Under the pieces are notes generated by a model that saw only the letters and a list, made by a program, of their open reading frames with translations, was not told where the DNA came from and did no database searches. Shown piece by piece: positions 35,232-61,001 of a stretch of DNA of 64,000 nt (position 1 is the first letter of the stretch; each line of letters starts with the position of its first letter). A program made the position numbers and the translations under genes. Origin of the DNA: Patescibacteria group bacterium (GTDB lineage Bacteria; Patescibacteriota; Patescibacteriia; UBA2591; UBA6264); NCBI GenBank assembly GCA_021735685.1, contig JAIPGN010000001.1:202678-266677 (forward strand), written 5' to 3'.

Positions 35232-36803
35232 ATGAAAAAACAAGATCAACGAGCTATGTTGATTATCTTAGATGGTTGGGGCGTGGGTCTAAAAAGTAAA
35301 GGAAACGCGATTGAGATGGCCCAAAAGCCCTTTTTTGATAGCTTAAGAGCCAAGTATTCTTATACAGAAATTTGTGCTCATGGTTTAAAGGTTGGTCTTC
35401 CTCAAGGGCAACCAGGCAATTCAGAAGCTGGTCATTTGAACTTGGGTGCGGGAAGAGTTATCGAAAGTGATGCTGTGCATATTGATAGTTTGATTAAGGA
35501 CGGAAGATTTTTCAAAAACCCTGCTTTTTTAGAAGGAATTAGCCATTATCAAAAAAATAAATCGCAAGTGCATTTAATGGGTTTAGTTACTGAAGAAAAC
35601 AGCGCTCATTCTTCGCCAGGTCATTGGTTGGCGATGCTTAATTTTTTAAAAGAAAAAAAGGTGCCAAAGGTTTTTTTGCATCTTTTTACTGATGGTCGTG
35701 ATTCTTCGCAACACGCGGCTATTAGGATTTTAGAAAGATTTGAGGCTAAAATTAATGGCAATGGCTCTCCTTTGAAAGTGGAAATTGTTAGCATTGTGGG
35801 GCGTTTTTATGCCATGGATCGAGTTCAAGAATGGAGTAACATTGAGAAAGCGTATCAGCTTCTTACGGAAGGAGAGGGCTTCCAAGCCAGTAGTGCGGCT
35901 GAAGCGATTGTTAGCGCTTATAACCGGAAAGAAACCGATGAGTTTGTTAGTCCGACGGCAATTGTTGATAAAAAAGGAAAACCTCAGGGTTTGATTAAAG
36001 ACAAGGATTTGGTTTTCTTTATGAATTTACGTTCTGATCGAGCCAGAGAGTTAAGTAAAGTTTTTGTTCAGAAAGATTTTGAAAAGAAAAATTCCAAGGC
36101 TTTTTCACGAAAAAAGTTTTTAGAAAATTTGTTTTTTGTAGCTTTAACTGATTTTGGGCCAGATTTAGGTCGAATTCGAACTGCTTTCCCGAGCCCAAAA
36201 GTTGAAGAAACTTTGCCTTTTTGTCTGTCTTCTCGCCAGCAATTATATGTAGCCGAAAGTGAAAAATATGCCCATATTACTTTTTTCTTTAACGGAGGAT
36301 ATGATCATGTGGTTGCTGGAGAAAAAAGAATAATTGTTCCTTCGCCAGCAGTTGAGTCTTATGACCTTCAGCCAGAAATGAGCGCCGAGAAATTAAGTGC
36401 CAAAGTTATTCAAGAAATCAATGCCAATCAACCTGGTTTTGTGGCCCTTAATTTCGCTAATCCAGACATGGTTGGGCATACTGGTAATTTGATTGCCGCG
36501 ACCAAAGCTGTTGAATGCGTTGATCGCAATTTAAAGAAAGTAGTAGCTTGCGCTCAGAAAAATAAATACTCTGTAATTATTACTGCTGATCATGGAAATG
36601 CTGAAGAGATGATTGATTTAAGGACTGGGGAAATACGTACTACCCACACTATTAATCCCGTTCCTTTTATTTTATTTGGTCCAGATCTTAAGTCGGTTCA
36701 ATTAAAGAAAGACGGTTCTTTGTCTGATGTGGCGCCGACAATTTTAGAAATTTTAAATGAATCAAAGCCGCCAATAATGAAAGGGCGAAGCTTAATTAAG
36801 TAA
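35232..36803 (+). CDS. gpmI: 2,3-bisphosphoglycerate-independent phosphoglycerate mutase, copy 1
   Basis: LIILDGWG, GNSEAGHLNLGAGR (catalytic Ser) and the ITADHGN metal site. Confidence 0.9.
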   Translation: MKKQDQRAMLIILDGWGVGLKSKGNAIEMAQKPFFDSLRAKYSYTEICAHGLKVGLPQGQPGNSEAGHLNLGAGRVIESDAVHIDSLIKDGRFFKNPAFLEGISHYQKNKSQVHLMGLVTEENSAHSSPGHWLAMLNFLKEKKVPKVFLHLFTDGRDSSQHAAIRILERFEAKINGNGSPLKVEIVSIVGRFYAMDRVQEWSNIEKAYQLLTEGEGFQASSAAEAIVSAYNRKETDEFVSPTAIVDKKGKPQGLIKDKDLVFFMNLRSDRARELSKVFVQKDFEKKNSKAFSRKKFLENLFFVALTDFGPDLGRIRTAFPSPKVEETLPFCLSSRQQLYVAESEKYAHITFFFNGGYDHVVAGEKRIIVPSPAVESYDLQPEMSAEKLSAKVIQEINANQPGFVALNFANPDMVGHTGNLIAATKAVECVDRNLKKVVACAQKNKYSVIITADHGNAEEMIDLRTGEIRTTHTINPVPFILFGPDLKSVQLKKDGSLSDVAPTILEILNESKPPIMKGRSLIK

Positions 36804-36811
36804 TATTTTTT

Positions 36812-38383
36812 ATGTCTAATCAGATTCAGCCGGTACTTTTAATTATTCTTGATGGCTTTGGAGTTGCCTCTGTTGGGAACGGCAATGCGGTTACTTCTGC
36901 TAATTTGCCGTCTTTGGAGGGATTGGTTAATAATTATCCCACTACCACTCTTCAAGCTTCTGGCGAATCTGTTGGCCTATCTTGGGGCGAGCCAGGCAAT
37001 TCAGAGGTGGGTCATTTGAATATGGGAGGCGGTCGTATTATTTGGCAAAGTTTACCTCGTATCACTCAGGCCATTAGTGATAATAGTTTTTTTAAAAATA
37101 AAGCTTTCTTGAAAGCAGTCGAGCATGCTCAAAAAAATAATTCGGCTTTACATTTAGCTGGTTTAGTCTCTAGCGGGGGAGTGCATTCTTCTTTTGGTCA
37201 CTTGCACGCTCTTTTGGAATTAGCTGCTCAACAGGGTTTAGAAAAAGTTTATTTACATATTTTTCTAGATGGACGTGACTCTCCGCGAGATAGTGGCCAA
37301 GGTTTTGTAGAGGATCTAATTTCCAAGATGAGGAAATTAGGAGTTGGTCAAATTGCAACTTTGTCAGGACGTTTTTACGCTATGGATCGGGATAATAATT
37401 GGGACAGAATTGAAAGGGCTTATTTGGCTATGACTAAGGGTTTAGCGGAAGAAGAATTTGAAGATCCTTTAGTTGCGATTGAATCTTCTTATCAAAAAGG
37501 AATTTATGATGAGGAATTTGTGCCCGTAGTGATTAAAGAAAAAGATCAAGAGCCAATAGCAGTACAAGATAATGATGCTTTAATTTTCTTTAATTTTCGT
37601 CCAGATCGAGCTCGACAAATCACGGAAGCTTTTACCAAAAAAGAATTTGATGGTTTTCCGCGCGAGAAATTGAATAACTTTCTAATGGTTACTTTGACTG
37701 AATACGAGCAAGGATTGCCAGTAGAAATTGCTTTCCCAGTTGAAGACATTAAAAATCCTTTAGCCGAGACGATTAGTTCGGCTGGACATGGTCAATTTCA
37801 TATTGCCGAAACTGAAAAATATGCCCACGTTACTTTTTTCTTTAATGGCCGACGAGAAAAGAATTTCCCGCAAGAGGAAAGAATTCTAATCCCTTCTCCG
37901 CAGGTCAGTTCTTATGATCAAAAGCCAGAAATGTCTGCTCCTCAGGTTACTCATCAAGTTTTATGGGCCTTAGGAGATAAGAAATATAAGTTTATAGTAG
38001 TTAATTTTGCTAATCCAGATATGGTGGGTCATACGGGTAATTTAGGGGCAGTGATTAAATCTTTGGAAACTTTAGATGGTTTGGTGGGCAAAATTGTTGA
38101 TTTGGCCTTGAAGCAAAATTGGGTTAGTATCATTACTGCTGATCACGGCAATTGTGAAAAGATGATTAATTTAAGAAGCGGAGAGATTAATAAAGAGCAC
38201 ACTAATAATCCGGTTCCTTTTTTGGTCATTAAAAAAGGAGTAGAGGATCGGGGATTTTCTGGAGGTTTAAAAAATTTAAGCGCCTTAACTCCTAGTGGAG
38301 TTTTGGCTGATGTTGCTCCGACGATTTTAAAGATTATGAATTTGCCTCAGCCCCCAGAAATGCAAGGAATTTCTTTGGTTTAA
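36812..38383 (+). CDS. gpmI: 2,3-bisphosphoglycerate-independent phosphoglycerate mutase, copy 2 (divergent tandem paralog)
   Basis: LIILDGFG, GNSEVGHLNMGGGR and ITADHGN. Same 523-aa length as copy 1, with roughly 40-45% identity estimated by eye. Confidence 0.9.
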   Translation: MSNQIQPVLLIILDGFGVASVGNGNAVTSANLPSLEGLVNNYPTTTLQASGESVGLSWGEPGNSEVGHLNMGGGRIIWQSLPRITQAISDNSFFKNKAFLKAVEHAQKNNSALHLAGLVSSGGVHSSFGHLHALLELAAQQGLEKVYLHIFLDGRDSPRDSGQGFVEDLISKMRKLGVGQIATLSGRFYAMDRDNNWDRIERAYLAMTKGLAEEEFEDPLVAIESSYQKGIYDEEFVPVVIKEKDQEPIAVQDNDALIFFNFRPDRARQITEAFTKKEFDGFPREKLNNFLMVTLTEYEQGLPVEIAFPVEDIKNPLAETISSAGHGQFHIAETEKYAHVTFFFNGRREKNFPQEERILIPSPQVSSYDQKPEMSAPQVTHQVLWALGDKKYKFIVVNFANPDMVGHTGNLGAVIKSLETLDGLVGKIVDLALKQNWVSIITADHGNCEKMINLRSGEINKEHTNNPVPFLVIKKGVEDRGFSGGLKNLSALTPSGVLADVAPTILKIMNLPQPPEMQGISLV

Positions 38384-38405: not shown

Positions 38406-38753
38406 ATGGAAATAAAGTATTTTGTTCAAAACTTTGAATTAAATTCTGAGGATCAGGAATTTATTGACGAAGCACTACAAAAATTAACCCGTTTTTCAAA
38501 AGAAATTAAGGAAGCGCGGATAGATTTAAGTTATAATCCTAACCATTCTAAGGATGAGGTTTTTAGATTAGAAGTTAATTTACGCTTGCCTCGTAAAACT
38601 TTAAGGGGGGTTCACCGAGCAGGTGAATTACATAGCGCAGTGCATGCAGTGGAAGATATTTTGCAAAGGCAATTAAAAAAATACAAGGCTTATGGTTCTA
38701 CTCGTCGACGTTGGACTCAAAAATTATTTGCTCGTTGGCGCAACAAGGCTTAA
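38406..38753 (+). CDS. hpf: Ribosome hibernation promoting factor / RaiA (S30EA family)
   Basis: 115 aa with N-terminal strands and C-terminal ELHSAVHAVEDILQRQLKKYK (ribosome-associated inhibitor A signature). Confidence 0.7.
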   Translation: MEIKYFVQNFELNSEDQEFIDEALQKLTRFSKEIKEARIDLSYNPNHSKDEVFRLEVNLRLPRKTLRGVHRAGELHSAVHAVEDILQRQLKKYKAYGSTRRRWTQKLFARWRNKA

Positions 38754-38767
38754 TTACATTTTATTTT

Positions 38768-41461
38768 ATGAGTTTTCTTTCTAAAATTTTCTCTAAGGAT
38801 CCTAATGAAAAAGAGATTAATCAGCTTCAACCTTTAGTTGAGGCTATTAATGTTGAAGAGGGGAATCTAGAGAAATTGAGTTTAGCAGAATTAAAAAAGA
38901 AAAGCTTAGGTCTTCAAGAGAAAATAAAAAAAGGTCAGAGTAAGGAAGATTTTTTAGTGGAAGCTTTTGCTTTAGTGCGGGCTGTTGCTCAGAAAACATT
39001 AGGGCAAAGGCATTTTGATGTTCAGTTAATGGGAGGAATTGTTTTACATCAAGGGAAGATAGCGGAAATGAAAACCGGAGAAGGTAAAACGCTGGCTTCT
39101 ACGGCTCCTATTTATTTGAATGCTTTAGAGCAAAAAGGAGTACATGTGATTACGGTTAATGATTATTTAGCTCGGCGAGATACGGTTTGGATGGGTCAGA
39201 TTTATCGAGCTTTGGGCTTAAAGGCTGCTTGCTTAGTTCATGACGGAGCCTTTCTCTATGATCCAGAATATATAATTGATGAAGAGGGAAAAGAGCAAGA
39301 ACAAGGTTCCTCTCGAGATCAACTTAGGGATGCTACGGGCAGTTTTAAGGTAGAGCAAACTTACTTGCGGCCGATTAGTCGAAAAGAGGCCTATCAGGCC
39401 GACATCACTTATGGCACTAATAATGAATTTGGTTTTGATTATTTGCGAGATAATTTGGTGCGAGATTTAAAAGATTGTGTTCAAAGGGAATTAAATTATG
39501 CGATTATTGATGAGGTGGATAGTGTTTTAATTGACGAGGCTCGTACCCCTTTAATTATTTCGGCTCCTGATCGGGCCTCTGGTCAACTTTATTATAAATT
39601 AGCCAATTTGGTTAAATCTTTAAAAAGTGAAAAAGATTATGTGGTGGATGAAAAATTAAGAAGTGTGATTTTAACCGAAGAAGGCATGGCTCAAATGGCT
39701 TCTTTTTTAGGAGAGGATCCTTGGGTTAACAATAATACGGAATTAGCTCATCATATTGATGCCGCTTTAAAAGCTTTAGTTCTTTTTCAAAAAGATCGAG
39801 ATTATGTAGTTCAAAAAGAAGAGATCGTGATTATTGATGAATTTACAGGAAGACTGATGCCGGGCCGTCGTTATTCAGAAGGGTTGCATCAAGCTTTGGA
39901 AGCTAAAGAAAATGTCAAAGTCAAGCAAGAGTCTAAAACCTTGGCGACAATTACTTTTCAAAATTATTTTCGCTTCTATCATAAATTAGCTGGAATGACT
40001 GGAACCGCAGAAACCGAAGCTGAAGAATTTCATAAAATTTATGATTTAGAGGTAGTGGTTATTCCTACTAATAAGCCCATTATTCGTCAGGACTTAGCTG
40101 ACCGAATTTATCGTACTAAAGAAGCTAAATTTAAGGCGATTATTGAAGACGTAAAAGAAAGACATCAAAAAGGGCAACCAATTTTAATTGGTACTGGTGG
40201 ATTTACTATTGGTGAAAAAACAGTAGGAGCAATTGAAAAAAATCAAATTATTAAAAAATTACTTGATCGTCAAGGAGTCTCTTGTCAAGTTTTAGATGCT
40301 AAGAATCACGAGAAGGAAGGGCAGGTTATTGCTCAAGCTGGTCGTAAAGGGTCAGTAACAGTAGCCACGAATATGGCCGGTCGAGGAGTGGATATTGTTT
40401 TAGGGGGCAGTCCTTTTGATCAAGAAAAATATCAAGAGATTATTGATTTGGGTGGTTTGCATATTATTGGTAGTGAGCGGCACGAATCCCGGCGTATTGA
40501 TAACCAGTTGCGAGGACGAGCGGGTCGTCAAGGAGATCCGGGATCTAGTCAATTTTTCTTATCTTTAGAAGATGATCTGATGAGAATTTTTGGCGGTAGT
40601 CGTTTGTCTGGTTTAATGCAAACTTTAAAAATTCCTGAAGATGTGCCGATTGAAAGTAAGATAGTTTCTCGTTCTATGGAGTCAGCTCAGAAAAAAATTG
40701 AAGGTTTTAATTTTGATACCCGAAAACATTTATTGGAATACGATGATATTTTAAACAAGCATCGCGAAACCATTTATCGTTTACGCAAGAGGATTCTAGA
40801 AATGGATTATTCAGCCTTACGAGAAAATTTTTTAGCCAAAACCAAAGAAGAGGTTTTCCGTATTATTGAAAGTAAAACCAGGGAAGGAAAAGTAGATCAA
40901 GAAGCGGTTTTGAAAATTATGGAGTCAATATTCCCTTCTTCTCAAGAGGATTTTCAAGAAAAAGTTAAACCTTCTTTTTCGGCAAGCAAGATGGCTGAAA
41001 AAATAATGGAAGTAGTGGAGAAAGATTTTCAACAAATCGAAAAAGAGATTAAAGAAAAAGAGAAGGAGCTAGGGGATAAGAATTTGATGTCAAAAATTTT
41101 GAGATCTATTCACCTTCAGACTATTGATCGCTACTGGGTTTATCATTTGGACATTATTAATAATTTAAAAGGAGGGATTGGTTTACGTGCTTACGGACAA
41201 CATGATCCTTTAGTGGAGTACAAGAGAGAGTCGCGTCAAAAATTTAGAGACTTATTGATTAATATCGATCAACAAATTATTTACTCGGTCTACAAGATTG
41301 GCTTAGTTAAGAATTTTGCTCCTCGTTTTTCTCAACCGACAATAAATTTAGGAAAGAAAAGTGCTGTTTCTTCCCAAAAAAAGAAAGTGGGACGTAATGA
41401 TCCTTGCCCTTGTGGTTCTGGCAAAAAGTATAAAAAATGTTGTTATCCTAAGTACGAATAA
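38768..41461 (+). CDS. secA: Preprotein translocase ATPase SecA
   Basis: N-terminal LSKIFS, DEAD-box motifs (MKTGEGKTL and the DEVDSVLIDEARTPLIIS motor region) and the C-terminal zinc finger CPCGSGKKYKKCC. Start chosen at ATG 38768. Confidence 0.95.
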   Translation: MSFLSKIFSKDPNEKEINQLQPLVEAINVEEGNLEKLSLAELKKKSLGLQEKIKKGQSKEDFLVEAFALVRAVAQKTLGQRHFDVQLMGGIVLHQGKIAEMKTGEGKTLASTAPIYLNALEQKGVHVITVNDYLARRDTVWMGQIYRALGLKAACLVHDGAFLYDPEYIIDEEGKEQEQGSSRDQLRDATGSFKVEQTYLRPISRKEAYQADITYGTNNEFGFDYLRDNLVRDLKDCVQRELNYAIIDEVDSVLIDEARTPLIISAPDRASGQLYYKLANLVKSLKSEKDYVVDEKLRSVILTEEGMAQMASFLGEDPWVNNNTELAHHIDAALKALVLFQKDRDYVVQKEEIVIIDEFTGRLMPGRRYSEGLHQALEAKENVKVKQESKTLATITFQNYFRFYHKLAGMTGTAETEAEEFHKIYDLEVVVIPTNKPIIRQDLADRIYRTKEAKFKAIIEDVKERHQKGQPILIGTGGFTIGEKTVGAIEKNQIIKKLLDRQGVSCQVLDAKNHEKEGQVIAQAGRKGSVTVATNMAGRGVDIVLGGSPFDQEKYQEIIDLGGLHIIGSERHESRRIDNQLRGRAGRQGDPGSSQFFLSLEDDLMRIFGGSRLSGLMQTLKIPEDVPIESKIVSRSMESAQKKIEGFNFDTRKHLLEYDDILNKHRETIYRLRKRILEMDYSALRENFLAKTKEEVFRIIESKTREGKVDQEAVLKIMESIFPSSQEDFQEKVKPSFSASKMAEKIMEVVEKDFQQIEKEIKEKEKELGDKNLMSKILRSIHLQTIDRYWVYHLDIINNLKGGIGLRAYGQHDPLVEYKRESRQKFRDLLINIDQQIIYSVYKIGLVKNFAPRFSQPTINLGKKSAVSSQKKKVGRNDPCPCGSGKKYKKCCYPKYE

Positions 41462-41463
41462 TT

Positions 41464-41487
41464 GAGGGGACAGTCCCCCTCAAGCAA
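41464..41487 (+). repeat. Hairpin TTGAGGGG-acagtc-CCCCTCAA after secA
   Basis: 8-bp GC-rich stem immediately after the secA stop. A second hairpin TCCGCCAA-n10-TTGGCGGA follows at about 41491-41516. Confidence 0.4.
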
Positions 41488-41701: not shown

Positions 41702-41772
41702 AAGAAGGGGACTGTCCCCAGTTGTTTTATTTTTTTAAGAAGGGGACTGTCCCCAGTTGTTTTATTTTTTTT
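41702..41772 (+). repeat. Tandem duplication (2 x ~36 bp) of a hairpin-plus-T-run unit, AAGAAGGGGACTGTCCCCAGTTGTTTTATTTTTT, upstream of secD
   Basis: GGGGAC-t-GTCCCC stem followed by a T-rich run, repeated twice head to tail. It lies in the 365-nt secA-secD spacer. Confidence 0.6.
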
Positions 41773-41827: not shown

Positions 41828-43468
41828 ATGAATCGTAATAAAGTTTGGACTAGTTTTATCTTGATTATTGTTTTAGCTTTTTTGGCTTTAATGGTTGATA
41901 TTCCCCAGCTTCCTGAATGGGTGCCGGGTCATCAATGGTTTTCTCGTCAAAAGGTCCATTTAGGTCTTGATTTGCAAGGAGGCACGCAATTAGTTTATCA
42001 AACCGATACTAGCAATATTCCTAAAGAAGAAAAATTGTCTGCAGTTGAAGGGGCTAGAAATGTTGTTGAAAGAAGGATTAATATCTTTGGAGTTACAGAG
42101 CCAATTATTCAAATAGCTAAGGTGGAGAATGAGTGGAACTTGATTGTGGAATTGCCGGGGATTGAAGATGTGTCCGCGGCAGTAGAAATGATTGGGGAAA
42201 CTCCAATCTTGGAATTTAAAGAAAAGGCTCCTCCTCATGAGTTAACTGAAGAGGAAAAACAAGCTTTAGCTGAATATAATCGTCAGGCTCGAGTTAGGGC
42301 GGAAGATATTTTAAGCGAGACTTTAGCAGGAGAAGATAGTTTTGCTGATTTGGCTCAAAAATATTCCGAAGATGCGGGTACTAATTTAGATGGAGGCGAT
42401 TTAGGGTGGTTCCCGCGAGGAATGATGATTCCTGCTTTTGAAGAAGCTGTTTTTGATTCTTCCTTGAATTCAGGAGAAATAATTCCAGAAATCATTGAAA
42501 CTAGCATTGGTTATCATATTATTAGAAAAACAGATGAAAAAGTGACGGAAGATGGAGAGGTTGAAGAGGTGAAGGCTAGTCATATTTTAATCATGACCCA
42601 ATCTGAGGAAATGATTAGTCAGGACGGTCAGTGGCAGTATACTGGGCTTACCGGCAAACAGCTTAAAAGAGCTATGGTGACTTTTGCTCCCCAAACTGGA
42701 GAGCCGGAAGTTTCTCTAGAGTTTAACTCCGAAGGCGCTAAACTTTTTGGAGAAATTACGGGGAGGAACATAGGTCAACCAGTGGCCATCTTTCTAGATA
42801 ATTATCCTTTGAGCATTCCAGTAGTACGAGAAAAAATAAGCACGGGAGAAGCTGTTATTAGCGGAGGTTTTGCCCTTAATGAAGCTAAGGAATTGGCTCG
42901 TCGTTTGTCGGCTGGTGCCTTGCCCGTCCCTATTAAACTGGTGGGGCAGCAAAATATTGGTCCTAGTTTAGGTAAAATTTCAGTACAAAAAAGTATAGTG
43001 GCCGGCATCCTGGGTTTCTTCTTGATTTGTATTTTTATGCTTGGCTTTTATAAATGGCGAGGCGTTTTAGCGGTATCAGCCTTGATTATTTATGCTTTAA
43101 TTGTTTTAGCTATTTATAAATTAATCCCAGTTACTTTAACTTTAGCTGGAGTAGCTGGTTTCATTATTTCTTTAGGTATGGCTGTTGATGCTAATATTCT
43201 TATTTTTGAAAGAATTAAAGACGAAAACCGGTTGGGAAAAAATTTAGCAGTAGCTATTGATGATGGTTTTAGTCATGCTTGGACTGCGATTCGGGATGGC
43301 AATATTACAACTTTAATTGTTTGTTTTATTTTGTATCATTTTGGTTCGGGTTTAGTGAGAGGATTTGGTTTAACTTTGGGAATCGGAGTTCTTTTGAGTA
43401 TGTTCACTGCTATTGTGGCCACTAAAACCTTCCTAAAAATTACTACTAAAGATTTTTTAAAGGATTAA
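41828..43468 (+). CDS. secD: Protein translocase subunit SecD carrying an inserted parvulin-type (PpiC) peptidyl-prolyl isomerase domain
   Basis: SecD motifs are present in order (LGLDLQGGTQL, RINIFGVTEPIIQ, LPGIEDVSAAVEMIGETPILEFKE, then after the insert ALNEAKELARRLSAGALPVP, then 6 TM segments). The insert (~aa 132-260) carries QARVRAEDIL ... DSFADLAQKYSEDAGTNLDGGDLGWFPRGMMIPAFEEAVF ... SIGYHIIRK, a complete parvulin signature. Start chosen at ATG 41828. Confidence 0.85.
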   Translation: MNRNKVWTSFILIIVLAFLALMVDIPQLPEWVPGHQWFSRQKVHLGLDLQGGTQLVYQTDTSNIPKEEKLSAVEGARNVVERRINIFGVTEPIIQIAKVENEWNLIVELPGIEDVSAAVEMIGETPILEFKEKAPPHELTEEEKQALAEYNRQARVRAEDILSETLAGEDSFADLAQKYSEDAGTNLDGGDLGWFPRGMMIPAFEEAVFDSSLNSGEIIPEIIETSIGYHIIRKTDEKVTEDGEVEEVKASHILIMTQSEEMISQDGQWQYTGLTGKQLKRAMVTFAPQTGEPEVSLEFNSEGAKLFGEITGRNIGQPVAIFLDNYPLSIPVVREKISTGEAVISGGFALNEAKELARRLSAGALPVPIKLVGQQNIGPSLGKISVQKSIVAGILGFFLICIFMLGFYKWRGVLAVSALIIYALIVLAIYKLIPVTLTLAGVAGFIISLGMAVDANILIFERIKDENRLGKNLAVAIDDGFSHAWTAIRDGNITTLIVCFILYHFGSGLVRGFGLTLGIGVLLSMFTAIVATKTFLKITTKDFLKD

Positions 43469-43498: not shown

Positions 43499-44374
43499 AT
43501 GTTTGATTTTATTGCACACGGGAAAAAGTTCCTTGCTCTTTCTGGGATTTTAATCTTGGTTTCTGTTTTAGCTTTGTCTTTTTGGGGTTTAAAAATGGGA
43601 ATTGATTTTGAGGGTGGAGCTATTTCTCAAGTTAAATTCTTGGAAGAAAGGCCAAGTAATGTAGAGATTGTCCAGAAATTAGATTCCCTAGAATTGGGTG
43701 ATGTTAGTGTTCGTCTCAGTGGTTCCAGTTCAGCTATTTTAAGATTTCCGGAAATAGACGAAGAGGTTCACCAGCAAATTTTAGAGTTATTGGGCGAAGT
43801 AGAAGAAGAAAGCTATGAAATGGTGGGGCCAGTTATCGGGAGAGAATCATCACGAAAAGCTCGGTCAGCTATTTTTCTTTCTTTGTTAGCTATTATTTTA
43901 TATGTAACCTGGGCTTTCCGAAAATTATCTCGTGTTTTAGGGAAGGGGGAGTCGTGGCGTTACGGAATTGGGGCTACTTTAGCTTTGGCTCATGATGTTT
44001 TAATTCTATTAGGTTTCTTTGCCGTGTTGGGTCATTTTCAAGGAATAGAGGTCAATGTAGCTTTTATTACCGCTTTATTAACTGTTCTTGGCTATTCAGT
44101 TAACGACACTATTGTTATTTATGATCGGATTCGAGAGAATCTTTTGCTGCATCGGGCCAAAAATTTGAGAGAGACTATTAATTTAAGCTTAAATGAAACC
44201 ATTACTCGTTCTTTGAATACTTCTTTAACTACGCTCTCGGTGCTTTTAGCTATTTATATTTTTGGCGGAGAAGCCATCCAAAGTTTTATCCTAGCGATGA
44301 TGATAGGAGTAATTAGTGGAACTTGGTCTTCTTTGGTAATCGCCAGTCAGTTTTTACTTTGGCGTCGTAAATAA
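43499..44374 (+). CDS. secF: Protein translocase subunit SecF
   Basis: N-terminal FDFIAHGKKF...GIDFEGG and a 6-TM SecF core. Confidence 0.9.
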   Translation: MFDFIAHGKKFLALSGILILVSVLALSFWGLKMGIDFEGGAISQVKFLEERPSNVEIVQKLDSLELGDVSVRLSGSSSAILRFPEIDEEVHQQILELLGEVEEESYEMVGPVIGRESSRKARSAIFLSLLAIILYVTWAFRKLSRVLGKGESWRYGIGATLALAHDVLILLGFFAVLGHFQGIEVNVAFITALLTVLGYSVNDTIVIYDRIRENLLLHRAKNLRETINLSLNETITRSLNTSLTTLSVLLAIYIFGGEAIQSFILAMMIGVISGTWSSLVIASQFLLWRRK

Positions 44375-50871: not shown

Positions 50872-50878
50872 GAAAGAA

Positions 50879-50950
50879 TAGCAGGAGCGGGGATCGAACC
50901 CGCGACATGTGCCTTATGAAGACACCGCTCTGCCACTGAGCTATCCTGCC
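50879..50950 (-). tRNA. tRNA with CAU anticodon (elongator Met or Ile2/lysidine type)
   Basis: Reverse complement GGCAGGA-TA-GCTC-AGTGGCA-GAGC-G-GTGTC-TTCATAA-GGCAC-ATGTC-GCGGG-TTCGATC-CCCGC-TCCTGCT-A forms a cloverleaf with a G1-U72 wobble, a CAT anticodon and no encoded CCA. Confidence 0.8.
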
Positions 50951-50951
50951 A

Positions 50952-51026
50952 TGGTTGCGGGGACAGGATTCGAACCTGTATCCTCCAGGTTATGGGCCTG
51001 GCGAGCTGCCATTGCTCTACCCCGCG
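50952..51026 (-). tRNA. tRNA-fMet-like (CAU anticodon, C1:A72 mismatch, encoded CCA)
   Basis: Reverse complement CGCGGGG-TA-GAGC-AATGGCA-GCTC-G-CCAGG-CCCATAA-CCTGG-AGGAT-ACAGG-TTCGAAT-CCTGT-CCCCGCA-A-CCA. The unpaired C1/A72 is an initiator hallmark. One nucleotide separates it from the next tRNA. Confidence 0.8.
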
Positions 51027-53497: not shown

Positions 53498-54296
53498 AAA
53501 CAAAATGATTGACACTCACGCCCATTTAAATTTTGAAAATTTCTCTTCTGATTATTCAGAAGTTATTAAACGGTCCTTAGAAAATAATGTCCGTTTAATT
53601 ATTAATGTAGGAACAAATTTAGTGACCAGCCAAAAAGCTGTTGATTTAGCTGAAGAGAATGAAAGTTGTCGGGCGACGGTTGGTTGCCATCCTTTAGAGA
53701 TTGAAGAGGGAAATTTCGATCTAGAGCAATATCGAAATTTGATTATTGAAAATCAGAATAAAGTTAAGGCAGTAGGAGAGATCGGATTGGATTATTACTA
53801 TTCACAGAAGGAAAAAGTTCAACAAAAAGAAATTTTGATTAGGCAAATTAGCTTAGCTCAAGAATTTAAGTTGCCTTTAATTTTACATTGCCGAGGAGAC
53901 AAAGAGAAACCTTTTGAAGCTTATCAGGAATTATTAGAAATTTTAAAGAAAGATTCTTTTTCTGGAATAAAAGGAGTAGCGCATTGCTTTGGGGCAAATT
54001 GGAGCTTAGCAAAAAAATTCTTAGATTTAGGTTTTTTAATTAGCTTTACTGGCATAGTTACTTTTAAAAATGCAGGAGATCAGCTCTTAGAAGTAGTTAA
54101 GAAAGTGCCTTTAGATAAATTTTTATTAGAAACCGATTCTCCTTATTTAGCGCCAGCACCTTATCGCGGACAGCGTAATGAACCATCTTATATTCCTTTA
54201 ATTGCCCAAAGAATAGCGGACTTAAAGGAAGTCTCTCTGGAAGAGGTGAGTAAAGTCACTACGCTCAGTGCTCAGAAATTATTTAACCTTTCTTAA
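53481..54296 (+). CDS. TatD family metal-dependent DNase/hydrolase
   Basis: N-terminal IDTHAHL, then GEIGLDYY, LHCR and the D at the end of ETDSPY follow TatD motif order. Confidence 0.9.
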   Translation: MALMNKNKMIDTHAHLNFENFSSDYSEVIKRSLENNVRLIINVGTNLVTSQKAVDLAEENESCRATVGCHPLEIEEGNFDLEQYRNLIIENQNKVKAVGEIGLDYYYSQKEKVQQKEILIRQISLAQEFKLPLILHCRGDKEKPFEAYQELLEILKKDSFSGIKGVAHCFGANWSLAKKFLDLGFLISFTGIVTFKNAGDQLLEVVKKVPLDKFLLETDSPYLAPAPYRGQRNEPSYIPLIAQRIADLKEVSLEEVSKVTTLSAQKLFNLS

Positions 54297-57232
54297 TGAA
54301 AAAAGACATTTTAAAGGAATTGAACCAAGAGCAAAAAGAGGCGGTTACTTTTCAAGATGGCCCTTGCTTAATTATTGCTGGAGCTGGTACGGGCAAGACC
54401 ACAGTAATTACTAAAAGGATAGCTTGGTTAATTGAGCAAAAATTAGCTCAACCGCATGAAATTCTAGCTCTTACTTTTACCGAAAAGGCAGCCCAAGAAA
54501 TGGAAGAAAGGGTTGATCGACTTTTACCTTATGGTTATTTAGATCTTTGGGTTTCCACTTTTCACTCTTTTTGTCAAAAAATTTTAGAAACTCATGCTTT
54601 AGATATAGGTCTGCCGATTGATTTTAAGCTTTTAGATGAAAGTCAGCAGGCTTTTTTGGTTCAGCAAAATTTTGATCGTTTTCAACTTGATTATTATCGC
54701 CCTCTGGGTAATCCCACTAAATTTATTTCTGCTTTACTTAAACATTTTTCGCGAGCTAAAGACGAATTGATTAGTCCGCAAGATTATTTAGATTATACAG
54801 AAAATTTAAAGTTAAATCATGATTCTTCTATGTCTGATCAAGCTGTTAATACAGAAGTGGCCCGCTTAGGAGAGGTGGCCCAAGCTTTTCAGACTTATCA
54901 ACAAATACTTTTGGATAATAATTCTTTGGATTTTGGAGATTTATTGGCCTATACTATTCGGCTTTTTCAAAAAAGGCCTCAAATTTTAGAAAAATATAGA
55001 GAGCAATTTAAATATGTTTTGATAGATGAATTTCAAGACACAAATTGGGCTCAGTATGAATTAATTAAGACGTTATCTCATCCGAAAAATAATGTAATCG
55101 TGGTTTCTGATGATGACCAAGCTATTTATCGTTTTCGAGGCTCTTCCTATAATAATGTTTTGCAGTTCAAAAAAGATTATCCGCAAGCTAAGCAAATTGC
55201 GCTTTTAAAGAATTATCGTTCTTGTCAGAATATTTTAGACCTGGCTTATGATTTTATTCAGGCCAATAATCCAGCTCGTTTAGAGGCTCAACATAAAGGG
55301 ATAGTTAAAAAATTGGAGGCAGTCAAAAAAAATAAAGCTGAGATCAAATATTTTCAGGCCAAAACCAAAGAAGATGAAATTGGTTTGGTGGTTAAGAAAA
55401 TTATTGAATTAAAGAAGAAAGATTCCGATTCTAGCTGGAATGATTTTGCTATTTTAGTCAGAGCCAATTCTCAAGCAGAGGCCTTTTGTCAGGCTCTGCA
55501 ATTTGCTAATATTCCTTATCAATTTTTAGCTCACCGAGGACTTTTTTTCAAGCCAATAATTATTGACCTTTTGTCTTATTTGAAACTATTAGATAATTAT
55601 CGAGAAAGTTCAGCTATTTATCGTTTATTTTTGTCTCCGATCTTCCGAGAAAAGATTAATCACGAAGATTTATCTAATTTTGTTTATTTTGCTAACAAAA
55701 AAAGTTGGTCTTTTTATCAAGCGATGAAAAAAGCTAATTTAATTCCAGGATTGTCAGAAGGAGCCATAAAAGAGATTTTAAGATTTGCTGATTTAATCGA
55801 AAAGCACACCGCCCTATCTAAGGAAGAAAACGTGAGTAGGGTTATTTATGCTTTTTTGGAAGAGAGTGGTTATTTAAAGATTTTGGCTGAAAAGGAGAAT
55901 GGGCGGCAAAGTATTTTTTGGTTAAATCAATTTTTCAAAAAAGTAGAAAGTTTTGAAGAGGCTAATTTTGACAAAACTCTGACCAATTTTAATAAAATGA
56001 TGGAATTGATGATTGATACTGGTGACACTGGTTCCATGTTAGCAGATGATGAGGCTGGGCCTGAGGCAGTAAAAATTACTACGGTTCACAGCGCTAAGGG
56101 TTTAGAATTTAAATGGGTTTTTATTGTTAATTTAGTGGAACGACGTTTTCCTTCTATTGGAAGGTCTGATCCCATAGAATTGCCTCCTGCGTTAATTAAA
56201 GAAATTATTCCGGAAGGAGACGTTCATCTTCAAGAAGAAAGAAGACTTTTCTATGTGGCTTTAACTCGAGCCAAAGATGGTTTGTTTTTAACTGCAGCTG
56301 AAGATTATGGAGGCAAAACCAAGAAAAAAGCATCTCGTTTTTTGTCAGAATTAAAATTAAACAAAAAGGATCAATTAATTGGCCTTACTTCTGGCGCTCA
56401 TTATGTTCGTCGAGAAGAAAAGAAGGAGAAACCATCACCTTCTTTGAGGCTACCATCCAAGTTTAGTTTTTCTCAGTTAAATGCTTTTTCAAAATGTCCT
56501 CAGCAATATAAGTTTGCTTTTGTCCTTAAGCTTCCGCGCGAAGGTAAGGCTGCTTTTAGCTTTGGGAGTACGATCCATAACACCTTGCAAATTTTTGTAC
56601 AAGAGTGGATGAAAAAAAATCAAGCAGTTCAGAAAAATATTTTTAATCCTTCTGATAATTCGTCAACTCAAGGCAAAGGTTTAAGGTGGGAGGATTTATT
56701 AAAGATTTATCAAAAGTGTTGGATTGAGGATTGGTATGAAAACGAAGAACAGAGAAAAGAATATCAAAAAAAAGGTAAAGTTATTCTGAAGTCTTTTTAT
56801 GAAGATTTTAAAAAGAATCCTCCTCAAGTTTTGGGAGTAGAGCAAGGTTTTGTTTTTAAATTGGGGGATTATTGGCTTAAAGGAAAAATTGATCGAGTTG
56901 ATAGAGTAGAAGGAGGGCTAGAGTTAATAGATTATAAAACCGGTCGTCCTAAAGAAAAATTAAATGCTGAAGACAAAGAACAGCTTTTAATTTATCAATT
57001 AGCAGCTCAATCTTTGCAAAACATTTTTCCTGAAAAGGTTAAAACTTTAACTTATTATTATTTAGAAAATGGACAAAAATGTTCTTTTTCAGCTCAACCC
57101 AAGGAATTGGAAAAAATAAAGGAAAAATTGATAGAGAGAATTGAAAAGATTAAACAGAGTGATTTCCCGGCTCAACCCAGTAGATTGTGTAAATATTGCG
57201 ATTTCTATAACATCTGCGAAGATCGAATGTAG
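54296..57232 (+). CDS. UvrD/PcrA-family helicase fused to a C-terminal PD-(D/E)XK (RecB/Cas4-like) nuclease domain with a Cys cluster
   Basis: AGAGTGKTTVIT (Walker A), DEFQDT (motif II) and VHSAKGLEF (motif VI). The C-terminus has LELIDYKTG (nuclease motif III) and CKYCDFYNIC (Fe-S-type cysteines). Confidence 0.85.
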   Translation: MKKDILKELNQEQKEAVTFQDGPCLIIAGAGTGKTTVITKRIAWLIEQKLAQPHEILALTFTEKAAQEMEERVDRLLPYGYLDLWVSTFHSFCQKILETHALDIGLPIDFKLLDESQQAFLVQQNFDRFQLDYYRPLGNPTKFISALLKHFSRAKDELISPQDYLDYTENLKLNHDSSMSDQAVNTEVARLGEVAQAFQTYQQILLDNNSLDFGDLLAYTIRLFQKRPQILEKYREQFKYVLIDEFQDTNWAQYELIKTLSHPKNNVIVVSDDDQAIYRFRGSSYNNVLQFKKDYPQAKQIALLKNYRSCQNILDLAYDFIQANNPARLEAQHKGIVKKLEAVKKNKAEIKYFQAKTKEDEIGLVVKKIIELKKKDSDSSWNDFAILVRANSQAEAFCQALQFANIPYQFLAHRGLFFKPIIIDLLSYLKLLDNYRESSAIYRLFLSPIFREKINHEDLSNFVYFANKKSWSFYQAMKKANLIPGLSEGAIKEILRFADLIEKHTALSKEENVSRVIYAFLEESGYLKILAEKENGRQSIFWLNQFFKKVESFEEANFDKTLTNFNKMMELMIDTGDTGSMLADDEAGPEAVKITTVHSAKGLEFKWVFIVNLVERRFPSIGRSDPIELPPALIKEIIPEGDVHLQEERRLFYVALTRAKDGLFLTAAEDYGGKTKKKASRFLSELKLNKKDQLIGLTSGAHYVRREEKKEKPSPSLRLPSKFSFSQLNAFSKCPQQYKFAFVLKLPREGKAAFSFGSTIHNTLQIFVQEWMKKNQAVQKNIFNPSDNSSTQGKGLRWEDLLKIYQKCWIEDWYENEEQRKEYQKKGKVILKSFYEDFKKNPPQVLGVEQGFVFKLGDYWLKGKIDRVDRVEGGLELIDYKTGRPKEKLNAEDKEQLLIYQLAAQSLQNIFPEKVKTLTYYYLENGQKCSFSAQPKELEKIKEKLIERIEKIKQSDFPAQPSRLCKYCDFYNICEDRM

Positions 57233-57515
57233 TTTTTTTGGATTGACAAAAGGTCAATTTTGTGATATCTTGATGATATAAGAATGAATAAATTATTAGT
57301 TTAATTTAAAAAAATGGAATTTAAAAAATTAAGTCATCAGGAGAAAGAAGAAGAGCAAGAAGCTTTAATTGCTCGAGAAGAAGAGGAGGAGGAAGAAAAT
57401 GAAGAAGCTTTAATTGCTGAAGAAGAGGCCGAAGAAAAAGAGGAGAGAAAAAGAAAAAAAGCTTTATTTTATAAAAAGATTAAAAAAGACAAAGAACAAG
57501 ATTAGCTTTAACTAT

Positions 57516-60500
57516 ATGGAAATGTCTAAAAAAAATAACAAACCTGAGGAAAAAAAGGCAACAGGTGAAACTAAAGAAGGAAGTAGCTATGAAGCTCAGA
57601 TAAAAAAAGCAGAAAATATTGATGCTTTAATGGCAACTTTAGATGATATTCCTAATTTTTTTGAGGAAGAAAATGAGGATAAAGCTAAAGAAGAATTTAA
57701 GGAAAAATTTGAAATTCTTAAAAAAGAAGTTGAGGCTCGTAAAGAAGATGAAGACGTCGTTGAATATGGCGGCTTTAATTTTTTTACTACAGAATATGGA
57801 TTAAGAAGCAAGATAAGAGAGCTGTTATTGGGAGAAAGCTTTAAAGATGAAATAGAAAATAAAGACGCAGAAGAACAAGAAACAGAAAAGGAGAAAGCAA
57901 ATAATGAAAAAGAAGAAGAGAGAAAAAAAAGGGAAAAAGAGGCTCTAGAAAAGAAAGCTGAGGAAAAAGAAATGCTTTATTCTACTAAAATTGATTTAAT
58001 GGAAGATCTTGATGATAATGAAAAGAAAGAATTAAAAGATAAGGTAAGATTTGTTAATAAAGAAAAAGTAGCTGAAGAGTGTCAAGGAGATTTTGAGGAA
58101 TTGTTAAAATTGTCTGCCCAAGAGGAAGGGGAGATAGTTAAAAAGAAAAAAGAAGACAAAGATGAGAAAGTTGAAGAAGGTAAAGAGGAAGAGGAGAGTG
58201 AAGAGCAAATAGAAATTGATCTTGAAGGATTACCAACAGAAGGGGAAGGTAAGTATCAGGAAAAAATAAAAGAAATGAGCGAGAAATTAGATTTACCTGA
58301 GGAAGAAATTGAGCAAATTGTTAACCAACAAAAAGCTAATTTAGTTGAATTAACAGCTCAGAAATCTAAAAAGAAAGAAAAGAAATGGAAGAAAATAGGC
58401 AAAACTTTGGGAATTTATGCGGTTCTTGGCGGCGGCTTAGGTTTATTAACTGGTGGCTTAGGCATTGGTATTGGTCTTGCGGCCGGAAGAATCATTGATA
58501 CTATTTTTAAAGGAAAGAAAACTAAAAAGGATCAAGAAAAGGCCCAACAAGAAGTTAATGCCATTTTATTAAAAACCAAAGAGGCTGAAGGAGAAGCCGA
58601 TAAAGAAGAAGACGAAGGCACGAAAAGTGTTTTGGATTCTTTTTATGATAATATTTTTACTGAATTGTCTTTGGCTAAGCGCAATCAAATCGAGGGCCAG
58701 AATAAAGAAAAGAGTGAGCTTGGAAAAAAAATTTCTAAACTAGAAGAAAGTTATCGCCCAGAAGATAAAGAAAAATTAGCAGAACTTTATCAAACGAGAA
58801 GGGAACAGCAAAAAGAAAAAATCCAAGATTATTTAATGGCAAAGGGCTTAGAAGGAGAAGAATTAGAAAAAAGAGTGAAATTGTCAGCTCAGTTAGTAGA
58901 ATTAGATGATAATCAAAAAATAATGGAACTTGATTTTGCTAAACGCAAGGCCAGTAAAGTCGCTAAGATCTTTAGCAAACTAGATTCAATTTTAAGTCAT
59001 CCTGCTCTTTTGGGTGGAGCCAAGCAGGCAGAGAGCCAAAATAAAGAAAAGATAATTACTGCTAGTATTTTTGCAGTAGCTGGTGTTTTGGCTCGTTCTT
59101 GCCCAATAGTTAGGAATGTTTTAATGGCTTATGCGGGTATGAAATTAGGCTCTGCTGCCGCTGATTTAATGTTTGGAAAAAACAAAGAACTAAGAGAGGT
59201 TTCTGGCGAACAGCTTAGCCTAGAAAGCAGCGTTGAGGACCTTAATCGAGCTAAGGCCCAACTTTTAGACCCTAAATATAAAGAAAAAAATCCTTTAGAA
59301 CATGCTAAATTACAAGAAAAAATATTTGCTATTGATCGTGCCAGAATGGAGAAAGCCTTAGGAAAGACAGAGGCAACAGAGAGGGAAGATGAGGAGGCTG
59401 AAGGTGAAAAAATTGAAACTGATTCAGAGGAAGAGAAGATAGAGGTAAAAGAAGAAGAGGAAATAAAAGAAGCTGTAGAGGAAAAATATGGTTACATTGT
59501 TCAGGCCAACCAAGAATTAGAAGAAGCAATTAAAAAAAGAAGAGCAGCTCAGGGAGCACATAAAGGAATGAAAATATTTTTAGGAATAGCTGGCGGAGTA
59601 GCAGGTTGGTTTTTGGGAGAATATATGAATAAGCAAAATGAGGCTAAGGAAGCAGAGAAGGCCCAAGCAAAGAAATTAGAAGAAACGCAAAAAGATTTTC
59701 CTAAAGAAAATGTTAATAATGAAACTCCTCTTGACAAGCAAATAAAAATGTCAGCTGCCGAATTAGAAGCGCAAGAAAAGGAGCTGGCTCGAATTGAAGC
59801 AGAAAGAAGAATGGCTGAACTTAATAAGCCCGTTGTAGTAGAAAAGGGAGATACGGTTTGGGGAGTGTGCGAAAAGCAATTAGAAGAAAGAGTAGATAAT
59901 TGGGAAGAATTAAGCCAGGCGGAAAAAGATTATTTGATTGATTGGTATAAAGATAAAGTAGTGGCTAATCCCGCAGAGTATGGAATTGATGGTGGTAATG
60001 CCAGTTCTTTAAAAATTGGCTCGGAAATTAAAGTTGCTAATTTATTTAAAGATCAGGGTGAAATGGTTAAAGCTTTAGCTAAAGCACAGGGCTTAAGTAC
60101 GGAACAAGTCCAAAATATTATGAATAATCGAGAATTGATTGGTAATGTTATGAGTCAAAAATTAGAAGAAGTTCCCGGAGATAAATTATTAGAAGCAGTG
60201 CGAGTGATGGGCGGAACTGATCAAGCGGGGGCTGGCTTTGTGGCTGAAGTTGAAAAAAGAGCCACTGAGGTTTTAGGGGAAGCTGTTACTTCTGATCAAA
60301 CTCAAACTATATTAAATAATCCTGAGGTTTTTGGGAAAATAATGGATTCTGGGGTTGAGAGTCTTGAAGAAGTGGAAAATGAAACTTTGGGTCAAGCCTT
60401 TAGGCTGCTTAAGAATACTGATAGCGTGGGCAAAGAATTACTTCAAGAGGCTCAAGAAGTAGAAGGAGCGATAGGAGAAGAGTTAGTAGAAAGAGCTAGT

Positions 60501-61001
60501 GGTAGTTGGGAAAGGATTAAGAATATTATCGGTGGAGACCCCTATGACAATCAATTTCATGCTGGTTATGACATTGACCCTAATAAGCCCTTGATGAGCG
60601 TTTATCAGAATGATTGGATATCTCAAAAAGCTGACGAGGCTTTAAGTAAAGGAGATGAATTAATTAGTCAAGCTGAAAAAATGCAGGAATTGATTGGCAA
60701 GAGTGACTCTTGGTGGCATAAACTTTGGGGTATTGAGGGTAAAATTGAAAAATTAAAAGACACCTTTGATCAAAATACTGACATCTTTAATCAGGTGAAA
60801 GAAACTTACTATAATGGTTGGCAGCAAGGAAAATCTTCGGCTCAAGAATGGTTTAATCTAACCGGAGATAAAAAGATTCTTGGTGATTATTTTGGAGGAG
60901 ATTTTTTCGAAAAAAATAACTCTCTTTTGAGCGAAAAAATATCAAAATTACAAGAATTAATTAACCAACTAGGCAGTCGATATAGCAATGGAGCAGTATA
61001 A
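57516..61001 (+). CDS. Large (~1160 aa) E/K-rich coiled-coil membrane protein with glycine-zipper TM segments and a C-terminal LysM-like domain, hypothetical
   Basis: Start chosen at ATG 57516 (MEMSKK). Low-complexity charged N-terminal ~300 aa; TM GIYAVLGGGLGLLTGGLGIGIGLAAG; two further hydrophobic segments; VVVEKGDTVWGVCEKQ...IGSEIKV is LysM-like; the C-terminal ~350 aa is globular. Confidence 0.55.
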   Translation: MEMSKKNNKPEEKKATGETKEGSSYEAQIKKAENIDALMATLDDIPNFFEEENEDKAKEEFKEKFEILKKEVEARKEDEDVVEYGGFNFFTTEYGLRSKIRELLLGESFKDEIENKDAEEQETEKEKANNEKEEERKKREKEALEKKAEEKEMLYSTKIDLMEDLDDNEKKELKDKVRFVNKEKVAEECQGDFEELLKLSAQEEGEIVKKKKEDKDEKVEEGKEEEESEEQIEIDLEGLPTEGEGKYQEKIKEMSEKLDLPEEEIEQIVNQQKANLVELTAQKSKKKEKKWKKIGKTLGIYAVLGGGLGLLTGGLGIGIGLAAGRIIDTIFKGKKTKKDQEKAQQEVNAILLKTKEAEGEADKEEDEGTKSVLDSFYDNIFTELSLAKRNQIEGQNKEKSELGKKISKLEESYRPEDKEKLAELYQTRREQQKEKIQDYLMAKGLEGEELEKRVKLSAQLVELDDNQKIMELDFAKRKASKVAKIFSKLDSILSHPALLGGAKQAESQNKEKIITASIFAVAGVLARSCPIVRNVLMAYAGMKLGSAAADLMFGKNKELREVSGEQLSLESSVEDLNRAKAQLLDPKYKEKNPLEHAKLQEKIFAIDRARMEKALGKTEATEREDEEAEGEKIETDSEEEKIEVKEEEEIKEAVEEKYGYIVQANQELEEAIKKRRAAQGAHKGMKIFLGIAGGVAGWFLGEYMNKQNEAKEAEKAQAKKLEETQKDFPKENVNNETPLDKQIKMSAAELEAQEKELARIEAERRMAELNKPVVVEKGDTVWGVCEKQLEERVDNWEELSQAEKDYLIDWYKDKVVANPAEYGIDGGNASSLKIGSEIKVANLFKDQGEMVKALAKAQGLSTEQVQNIMNNRELIGNVMSQKLEEVPGDKLLEAVRVMGGTDQAGAGFVAEVEKRATEVLGEAVTSDQTQTILNNPEVFGKIMDSGVESLEEVENETLGQAFRLLKNTDSVGKELLQEAQEVEGAIGEELVERASGSWERIKNIIGGDPYDNQFHAGYDIDPNKPLMSVYQNDWISQKADEALSKGDELISQAEKMQELIGKSDSWWHKLWGIEGKIEKLKDTFDQNTDIFNQVKETYYNGWQQGKSSAQEWFNLTGDKKILGDYFGGDFFEKNNSLLSEKISKLQELINQLGSRYSNGAV

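Follow-up and report, generated by a model that had tools for sequence, protein, structure and literature searches.

The window analysed here is a stretch of 64,000 nucleotides from the metagenome-assembled genome (MAG) of a Patescibacteria group bacterium (contig JAIPGN010000001.1), and our subject is one of its genes, secD, the product of which carries a predicted parvulin-type peptidyl-prolyl isomerase (PPIase) domain nested between its SecD domains. An earlier note on this DNA, made by reading the sequence alone, had proposed that SecD carries a complete parvulin in its periplasmic head. The coding sequence at 41828-43468 on the forward strand and every motif quoted in that note are present. 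The gene has the following features, with protein positions in amino acids (aa).

41828..43468, + strand: secD coding sequence, with the predicted parvulin nested in SecD; 546 aa plus stop, beginning with MNRNK (MNRNKVW...)

41846..41899, + strand: first transmembrane helix (TM1), about aa 7-24; helix 2-24 in the AlphaFold2 (AF2) model, topology from aligned solved SecDF

42047..42226, + strand: N-terminal part of the P1 base, aa 74-133, ending in strand ILEFKE (Pfam SecD_1st, E 7.9e-15)

42248..42598, + strand: predicted circularly permuted parvulin (PpiC-type PPIase), aa 141-257, in the order α1, α2, loop, β2, α4, β3, β4, hairpin, β1′

42248..42328, + strand: predicted parvulin helix α1, aa 141-167, containing QARVRAEDIL; helix by DSSP, aligning with SurA helix 'DEQARVKLEQIAAD'

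42362..42373, + strand: YSED loop, aa 179-182; S180 is invariant and D182 corresponds to Pin1 C113

42509..42544, + strand: predicted strand β4, GYHIIRKTDEKV, aa 228-239; strand by DSSP, H230 corresponds to Pin1 H157, G228 and H230 invariant

42560..42595, + strand: predicted displaced strand β1′, VEEVKASHILIM, aa 245-256; strand by DSSP, hairpinned to β4, H252 corresponds to Pin1 H59

42644..42928, + strand: P1 head core, aa 273-367 (Pfam SecDF_P1_head, E 8e-28, profile positions 20-114)

42971..43447, + strand: transmembrane helices TM2-TM6, aa 382-540 (Pfam SecD_SecF_C; AF2 helices 382-540)

The window protein is SecD, one subunit of the SecDF translocation motor, and comes from a Patescibacteria (candidate phyla radiation, CPR) bacterium. 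It matches the NCBIfam SecD model TIGR01129 over aa 45-536 and profile positions 1-397 with 375.9 bits against a cutoff of 244.4, and it has the SecD layout of TM1, a large P1 domain made of base and head, and five further transmembrane helices. By the topology of the aligned SecDF, the segment from TM1 to TM2 is extracytoplasmic. The proton-relay Asp, D454, corresponds to Thermus thermophilus D340 in TM4 ('GMAVDANIL' aligns with 'GAAVDGNVL' of structure 3aqp) and is invariant in a set of 82 family members with overall identities of 54-78%. In Foldseek, the full-length AF2 model retrieved the SecDF structures 5xan, 5yhf and 3aqp at E 1e-22 to 1e-24. Its matches comprised SecDF and resistance-nodulation-division (RND) pumps only, and because parvulins were crowded out of this list, the insert was also modelled separately. 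The reading frame runs uninterrupted from the ATG at 41828 with SecD sequence flanking the insert on both sides, and the protein is 100% identical to NCBI entry MCF7906896.1, 'SecD [Patescibacteria group bacterium]'.

The Pfam profile search gave the order Sec_GG (aa 41-61), SecD_1st (74-133), Rotamase (145-235), Rotamase_3 (149-237), SecDF_P1_head (273-367) and SecD_SecF_C (374-537), that is, Rotamase nested between SecD domains as the earlier note had anticipated, an architecture that goes well beyond what chance would produce. Alignment with T. thermophilus SecDF (3aqp) placed the insert precisely: residues 31-131 correspond to T. thermophilus 26-116 (ending in ...LEFR) and residues 274-536 to 160-422, leaving 142 residues (132-273) in the window SecD versus 43 (117-159) in Thermus. 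The head core of the window SecD follows the GLDLxGG motif at a distance of 224 aa; this distance is 222-239 aa in SecDs with one parvulin unit and 329-343 aa in those with two, versus 90-160 aa in nearly all of about 70 SecDs without the insert; two deltaproteobacterial SecDs without a parvulin reach 204-209 aa through an unrelated insertion elsewhere in P1. The match to the P1_head profile begins at about position 14-20 whether or not the insert is present (14-19 in SecDs without it), which places the parvulin N-terminal to the conserved head core, in the base-head junction, a stretch of variable length among SecDs. Going by these alignments, the insertion site is the junction of the P1 base and the mobile P1 head. 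The idea of a complete parvulin nested in P1 therefore stands, but its assignment to the head itself does not, the domain lying outside the conserved head core. Because the insert lies between TM1 and TM2, SecD topology predicts the domain to be extracytoplasmic.

The insert matches Rotamase (PF00639) with E 5.9e-20 and 72.5 bits (cutoff 21.7) and Rotamase_3 (PF13616) with E 1.5e-21 and 77.6 bits (cutoff 22.5); among known parvulins, SurA is its best sequence match (E 2e-19), and PrsA follows at 3e-13. In the full-length AF2 model, which was built from the alignment of 82 sequences and has a predicted local distance difference test score (pLDDT) of 82.8, the insert is the most confident stretch (pLDDT 86-93). 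Modelled alone (aa 134-268, 40-sequence alignment), it reached a pLDDT of 94.4 and a predicted template modelling score (pTM) of 0.86 and showed the four-stranded antiparallel sheet packed by helices that is typical of parvulins. The predicted fold is thus intact, as the earlier note had expected, though permuted.

Canonical parvulins begin with β1, followed by α1 to β4, and the insert departs from this order. The Pfam matches begin only at profile position 9-10 of 97 (Rotamase) and 31 of 116 (Rotamase_3), indicating that β1 is missing on the N-terminal side, and the β1 motif with its His, VKASHILI, comes after β4 (GYHIIRK). The absence of β1 before α1 together with its presence after β4 indicates that the domain is circularly permuted. 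The full parvulin signature had previously been described as occurring in order, which does not hold, since β1 is located after β4. Likewise, QARVRAEDIL had been taken for β1 with His replaced by Asp; it lies inside the 27-residue helix 141-167, is helical in both AF2 models and aligns with helix α1 of SurA, and we rejected it as β1. VKASHILI had been listed as a second motif. It is indeed present, but it is not a spare copy: following β4 and hairpinned to it, it appears to be the only β1 of the domain.

In both AF2 models, the strands 228-239 (β4) and 245-256 (β1′) form a long antiparallel hairpin. The sheet order of parvulins is 2-1-4-3, with β1 between β2 and β4. In the models, the other edge of β4 is occupied by β3, which leaves the trailing strand the central slot, next to β4 and β2. 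On this topological argument, β1′ would occupy the canonical β1 position. The insert is also colinear, without a break, with α1-β4 of the first parvulin domain of SurA (P1) plus the linker and β1 (VTEVHARHILL) of the second (P2). When the permutation was undone by placing residues 243-261 before residue 138, the Rotamase score rose from 76.3 to 80.8 bits with profile coverage now 1-96 of 97, and the Rotamase_3 score rose from 82.7 to 89.1 bits (77.4 without the strand) with coverage now 14-115 of 116. The de-permuted construct aligned with the whole PPIase domain of Pin1, residues 50-162 including H59, with E improving from 2e-6 to 5e-8. Its alignments to S. aureus PrsA, Pin1At, Ess1 and TbPin1 were likewise full-length, while those of the native order began only at α1. 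Altogether, the profile matches and predicted structures show an apparently intact parvulin fold nested in SecD, in which the central β1 is supplied from the C-terminal side via the β4-β1′ hairpin. By the same evidence, the insert is homologous to parvulins and represents a topological variant of them, a circular permutation.

The permuted order also bears on how the domain is connected to its host. Both links to SecD emerge at what is canonically the β1-α1 loop. In Pin1, this loop is the phosphate-binding substrate loop, and its use as the attachment site suggests a parvulin that is not phospho-specific. Because the loop borders the substrate cleft, the cleft should face the P1 junction. We therefore infer that the insert is a non-phospho-specific parvulin with its cleft bordering the SecD junction.

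Conservation was assessed in the 82 family members. Mean identity to the window sequence is 48% in the parvulin segment versus 65-68% in the P1 base, the head core and the transmembrane domain, and conservation within the parvulin is concentrated at functional positions. S180, G190, F204 (equivalent to Pin1 F134), G228, H230 (Pin1 H157) and H252 (Pin1 H59) are each found in 82/82 sequences. L192 (Pin1 L122) is conserved in 77/82 and M200 (Pin1 M130) in 79/82, while position 225 (Pin1 T152) is T in 68/82 and S in 14/82. D182, at the position of Pin1 C113, is D in 75/82 and C in four (Kuenenbacteria, 'FSDCPS'). A Cys here is the Pin1/Par10 state, and alternation between D and C at this position is the pattern of active parvulins. 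By sequence equivalence, the insert has both the Pin1-type tetrad (C113/H59/H157/T152) and the proline pocket (L122, M130, F134), and the catalytic-type residues appear to be under selection. The least conserved part of the domain is the loop of the β4-β1′ hairpin (aa 238-247, nt 42539-42568), with 22% identity and a length of about 8 to 40 aa among relatives. The long versions of this loop are acidic, low-complexity sequences rich in E, Q, I and V, e.g., KQQEIQIEVEVEGGQGLEIEQEPTIEQEPIKE.

A survey of homologues, of the kind that the earlier note had proposed, shows that the fusion is not peculiar to the window genome, the same insert occurring across part of the Patescibacteria. All of the 120 best database homologues, which were drawn from NCBI, JGI, ENA and Logan assemblies, share at least 54% identity and are all from Patescibacteria, have PF00639 and PF13616 between SecD domains. 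Those among the homologues that are named (Patescibacteria, Parcubacteria, Kuenenbacteria) are annotated 'SecD' only. We also surveyed 80 species-representative genomes, a non-exhaustive and biased sample obtained with peptide patterns of one sequence. In this sample, a single permuted unit is found at loci L001-L003 and L005. Two units are present in the SecD of a Magasanikbacteria genome (L006:2842-4875) and in SecDF fusions of Peregrinibacteria/Peribacteria (L018:2956-6183, L031 and L060). The two-unit forms have the element order α1-β4, β1, α1-β4, β1′ at the same position in P1, and by sequence they may be read either as two successive permuted domains or as one canonical domain nested in a split one. 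In L018, L031 and L060, the first unit has degenerated, as has the final strand, and the middle β1 plus the second unit make up a full canonical Rotamase match (positions 1-97). The survey found no insert in Saccharibacteria, Microgenomates (Shapiro-, Gottesman- and Curtissbacteria), Giovannoni-, Vogel- and Liptonbacteria, Melainabacteria, Chloroflexi and others. Several MAGs in the sample (L001, L002, L004, L005, L007 and others) are titled 'uncultured Gammaproteobacteria bacterium'; their SecDs are 44-78% identical to that of the window and have the CPR-type architecture, and the label is probably a taxonomic mislabel of these bins. For several of them, with SecDs at 66-78% identity to the Patescibacteria protein, it is evidently unreliable.

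In a neighbour-joining tree of the SecD core, the insert-bearing proteins form two coherent clades, a pattern compatible with an insert that was acquired once or twice long ago and then passed on vertically, with duplication and local decay. The guanine-cytosine (GC) content of the insert (0.384) equals that of the rest of the gene (0.385), and on this ground we rejected a recent horizontal insertion. The fusion thus appears, from these sequence comparisons, to be an old, vertically inherited and lineage-wide feature of part of the Patescibacteria, shared by many of these ultra-small bacteria. When a 50%-representative library was searched with the insert, proteins with 2-7 tandem parvulin units took most of the top ranks, since their summed scores exceed those of the fusions; SecDs made up only about 13 of the best 150 matches. 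Because the insert is colinear with SurA P1 plus the β1 of P2 and because tandem-parvulin proteins are numerous, we suggest that the permutation may have originated as an out-of-register piece, α1-β4 of one unit plus the β1 of the next, of a SurA-like tandem-parvulin gene. The strongest matches in the library (P0122-P0125, P0153, P0169) are 700-1040 aa long and contain 4-7 parvulin units in tandem, far more than the two of SurA.

Two further sec genes flank secD in the window.

43499..44374, + strand: secF, a separate partner gene, next after secD (Pfam SecD_SecF_C, E 2.9e-55)

38711..41461, + strand: open reading frame (ORF) of secA, upstream of secD, with a typical SecA translation and the C-terminal CPCGSGKKYKKCC zinc finger

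The probable start of secA is the ATG at 38768, and the order secA-secD also occurs at loci L001, L002 and L006. The spacer between secA and secD contains a perfect 35-nt tandem duplication (AAGAAGGGGACTGTCCCCAGTTGTTTTATTTTTTT, twice) at window positions 41702-41771, each copy of which consists of a GC hairpin followed by a T-run and is terminator-like, and an inverted copy of the hairpin directly follows the secA stop (41466-41481). The 13-mer GGGGACTGTCCCC is absent from the remainder of the 64 kb, chance predicting 0 copies, and Rfam gave no match. A longer, TTG-initiated ORF from 41651 crosses this AT-rich spacer with its terminator-like hairpins; we rejected it as spurious because the homologues begin at MNRNK and none share the extension. 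The surrounding genes are of an ordinary housekeeping kind and encode isoleucyl-tRNA synthetase (IleRS), enolase, cofactor-independent phosphoglycerate mutase (iPGM, as two paralogues), MurJ, LepA, a glycosyltransferase and a helicase-nuclease of the AddA type. The iPGM paralogues adjoin each other (35232-36803 and 36812-38383), are 523 aa each with a mutual identity of 43%, and have enolase directly upstream and secA downstream. An ORF of 1195 aa at 57414-61001 has no Pfam match at E<=1e-5 and adjoins the gene for the AddA-like UvrD helicase/PD-(D/E)XK nuclease (54296-57232). Two tRNA-Met (CAT) genes abut at 50878-51026 on the reverse strand. A search limited to the 64-kb window and to the regions flanking the 80 surveyed loci found no stand-alone parvulin gene.

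What might a parvulin at this position do? Driven by the proton-motive force, the P1 head of SecDF swings from the F form to the I form and back (PMC9987972; structures 3aqp, 5xan, 5yhf), and the P1 head binds unfolded preprotein emerging from SecYEG (PMC9987972). In the mechanism that we propose, the P1 head would capture the unfolded chain as it leaves SecYEG and pull it with the proton-motive force; a parvulin tethered to this head would then meet every substrate at the channel exit, where it may bind the chain and catalyse isomerization of Xaa-Pro bonds, acting as a foldase or a holdase. Contacts that elsewhere are made in trans between the translocon and a parvulin chaperone (SurA, PpiD, PrsA, Mpn444) would here have been turned into a covalent link. 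By analogy with these systems, we consider it probable that each chain is passed at the Sec exit to the tethered parvulin, which acts on it as foldase or holdase. The conserved cleft argues for genuine prolyl isomerase activity, which would then be delivered to the Sec exit.

Several observations weigh against an enzyme that acts in this way. Well-folded parvulins that are catalytically inactive and of a binding type exist, SurA P1 and the parvulin domain of PpiD among them, and the case has been made that the two histidines of the Pin1 parvulin serve structure and not catalysis, so that the invariance of H230 and H252 is no proof of catalysis. A parvulin-sized insert at L004:1290-3164 has no catalytic residues and reads GKYQIVE in place of GYHIIKK, and the degenerate insert at L065:3007-6069 has both His replaced by Gln; together with the first units of L018, L031 and L060, they indicate that the domain can be retained without catalytic residues. 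Finally, the full-length AF2 model has a pTM of 0.50, and how the parvulin is oriented with respect to the P1 head is uncertain. The degenerate units in sister lineages and the argument about the histidines would both fit a non-catalytic module, a holdase or chaperone that, like SurA P1 or the PpiD parvulin, merely adds surface for unfolded chains on the P1 head. We regard this alternative as unlikely, although it is the most serious of those considered. In the clade to which the window SecD belongs, the tetrad and the proline pocket are invariant or nearly so in the 82 sequences despite a domain identity of about 48%, whereas inactive parvulins typically lose residues of both, and the sole substitution of D182 is by Cys, the alternative found in active parvulins. 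In agreement with this, the Pin1 C113D point mutant is fully active, as stated in a preprint on Mpn444 (bioRxiv 10.1101/2024.09.05.611430).

Alternatively, the insert could be an elaboration of the P1 hinge, structural or regulatory, that tunes the swing between the F and I forms or docks an envelope partner and does not act on substrates. Its site in a junction that varies in length among SecDs (spacing of 90-160 aa in most) and the variable length of the β4-β1′ loop (about 8 to 40 aa) are compatible with such a role; nevertheless, conservation falls on the residues of the substrate cleft and not on a surface patch, and a hinge spacer has no need of an intact proline pocket, which makes this explanation very improbable. 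A chimeric assembly or a mis-called ORF that joined a parvulin gene to secD has to be considered for any sequence from a MAG, but here we rejected it and give it practically no weight: the insert lies in a single uninterrupted frame that reads as SecD before and after it, the architecture recurs in more than 120 clusters from independent assemblies (54-90% identity), and insert and remaining gene have equal GC content. A catalytically competent parvulin that receives chains at the Sec exit is thus the explanation that we favour.

An extension of this favoured explanation is conceivable, which we put forward tentatively and regard as rather more doubtful than not. In these single-membrane CPR bacteria with their reduced genomes, SecD might combine a proton-driven pulling motor with a foldase, the F/I swing carrying the catalytic cleft to and from the exit of SecYEG; translocation would then be coupled mechanically to prolyl isomerization or holdase action, and the fusion might replace a stand-alone PrsA, SurA or PpiD. 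It might also serve as Rosetta-stone evidence that parvulins dock on the SecDF P1 head in general, with the permutation having been captured from a tandem-parvulin gene.

SecD and parvulins are each well-known families, and precomputed annotations already show the Pfam architecture of the fusion; because databases label the protein 'SecD' only, its foldase part is invisible to their readers. Full-text literature searches returned no paper that describes a SecD-parvulin fusion, in line with the earlier note, which knew of no characterization of it, and no report of a circularly permuted parvulin. How proteins that exit SecYEG are handed over to folding factors is still debated. Each of the known links, namely those of PpiD-YfgM with SecYEG, of SurA with the holo-translocon, of PrsA at the membrane and of Mpn444 with SecD, is non-covalent and difficult to capture. 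A fusion within P1 that is conserved over a large bacterial radiation would provide evolutionary evidence, of an independent kind, that parvulin chaperones and SecDF are functionally coupled, and it offers a complex of fixed stoichiometry that is suited to structural and biochemical work. The fusion also suggests how genome-reduced CPR cells may economize on envelope chaperones, and a natural circular permutation of the parvulin fold should be useful for understanding the role of strand β1 and of the dual-histidine motif.

The protein resembles several known systems in part. With the SecDF of Thermus thermophilus and Deinococcus (3aqp, 5yhf, 5xan), it shares the arrangement TM1-P1-TM2-6, the P1 base and head core, the proton-relay Asp and a SecF partner, and its fold is similar to that of 3aqp (E 1e-22, TMq 0.63). 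It differs from them in that SecD and SecF are encoded by separate genes and in that Thermus segment 117-159 is replaced by the 142 residues that bear the parvulin. PrsA of Firmicutes such as B. subtilis, B. anthracis and S. aureus is a lipoprotein in which a parvulin of canonical order is nested in an N/C chaperone domain; by contrast, the window SecD has neither a lipobox nor this chaperone domain, the flanks are SecD domains, and the parvulin is predicted to be permuted. Accordingly, the NCBIfam model for PrsA (NF002846) gives 55.3 bits against a cutoff of 361 and that for SurA (NF008038) 54.3 bits against 394, in both cases with the parvulin part only, and the protein belongs to neither family. 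In E. coli, PpiD-YfgM is a membrane-anchored parvulin chaperone at SecYEG, and the parvulin domain of PpiD is inactive and without catalytic residues. PpiD is a separate protein that binds SecYEG, whereas in the window protein the carrier is SecD itself and the catalytic-type residues are conserved.

Other parvulins meet SecDF as separate proteins. SurA of E. coli, with its tandem domains P1 and P2, is soluble and periplasmic, acts in trans and hands its substrates to the β-barrel assembly machinery (BAM), whereas the CPR SecD has one apparently permuted unit built covalently into P1. SurA binds the SecYEG-SecDF-YidC holo-translocon in E. coli, and AlphaFold and electron microscopy work places both of its parvulin domains on the P1 head of SecDF, as a predicted docking (PMC9987972). 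The lipoprotein Mpn444 of M. pneumoniae, a parvulin with measured PPIase activity, cross-links to SecD (bioRxiv 10.1101/2024.09.05.611430). Mpn444/Mpn436 differ from the window protein in their non-covalent association, in being large trimeric lipoproteins and in their canonical parvulin order; nevertheless, they likewise place an extracellular parvulin at SecD, in a wall-less bacterium with a reduced genome.

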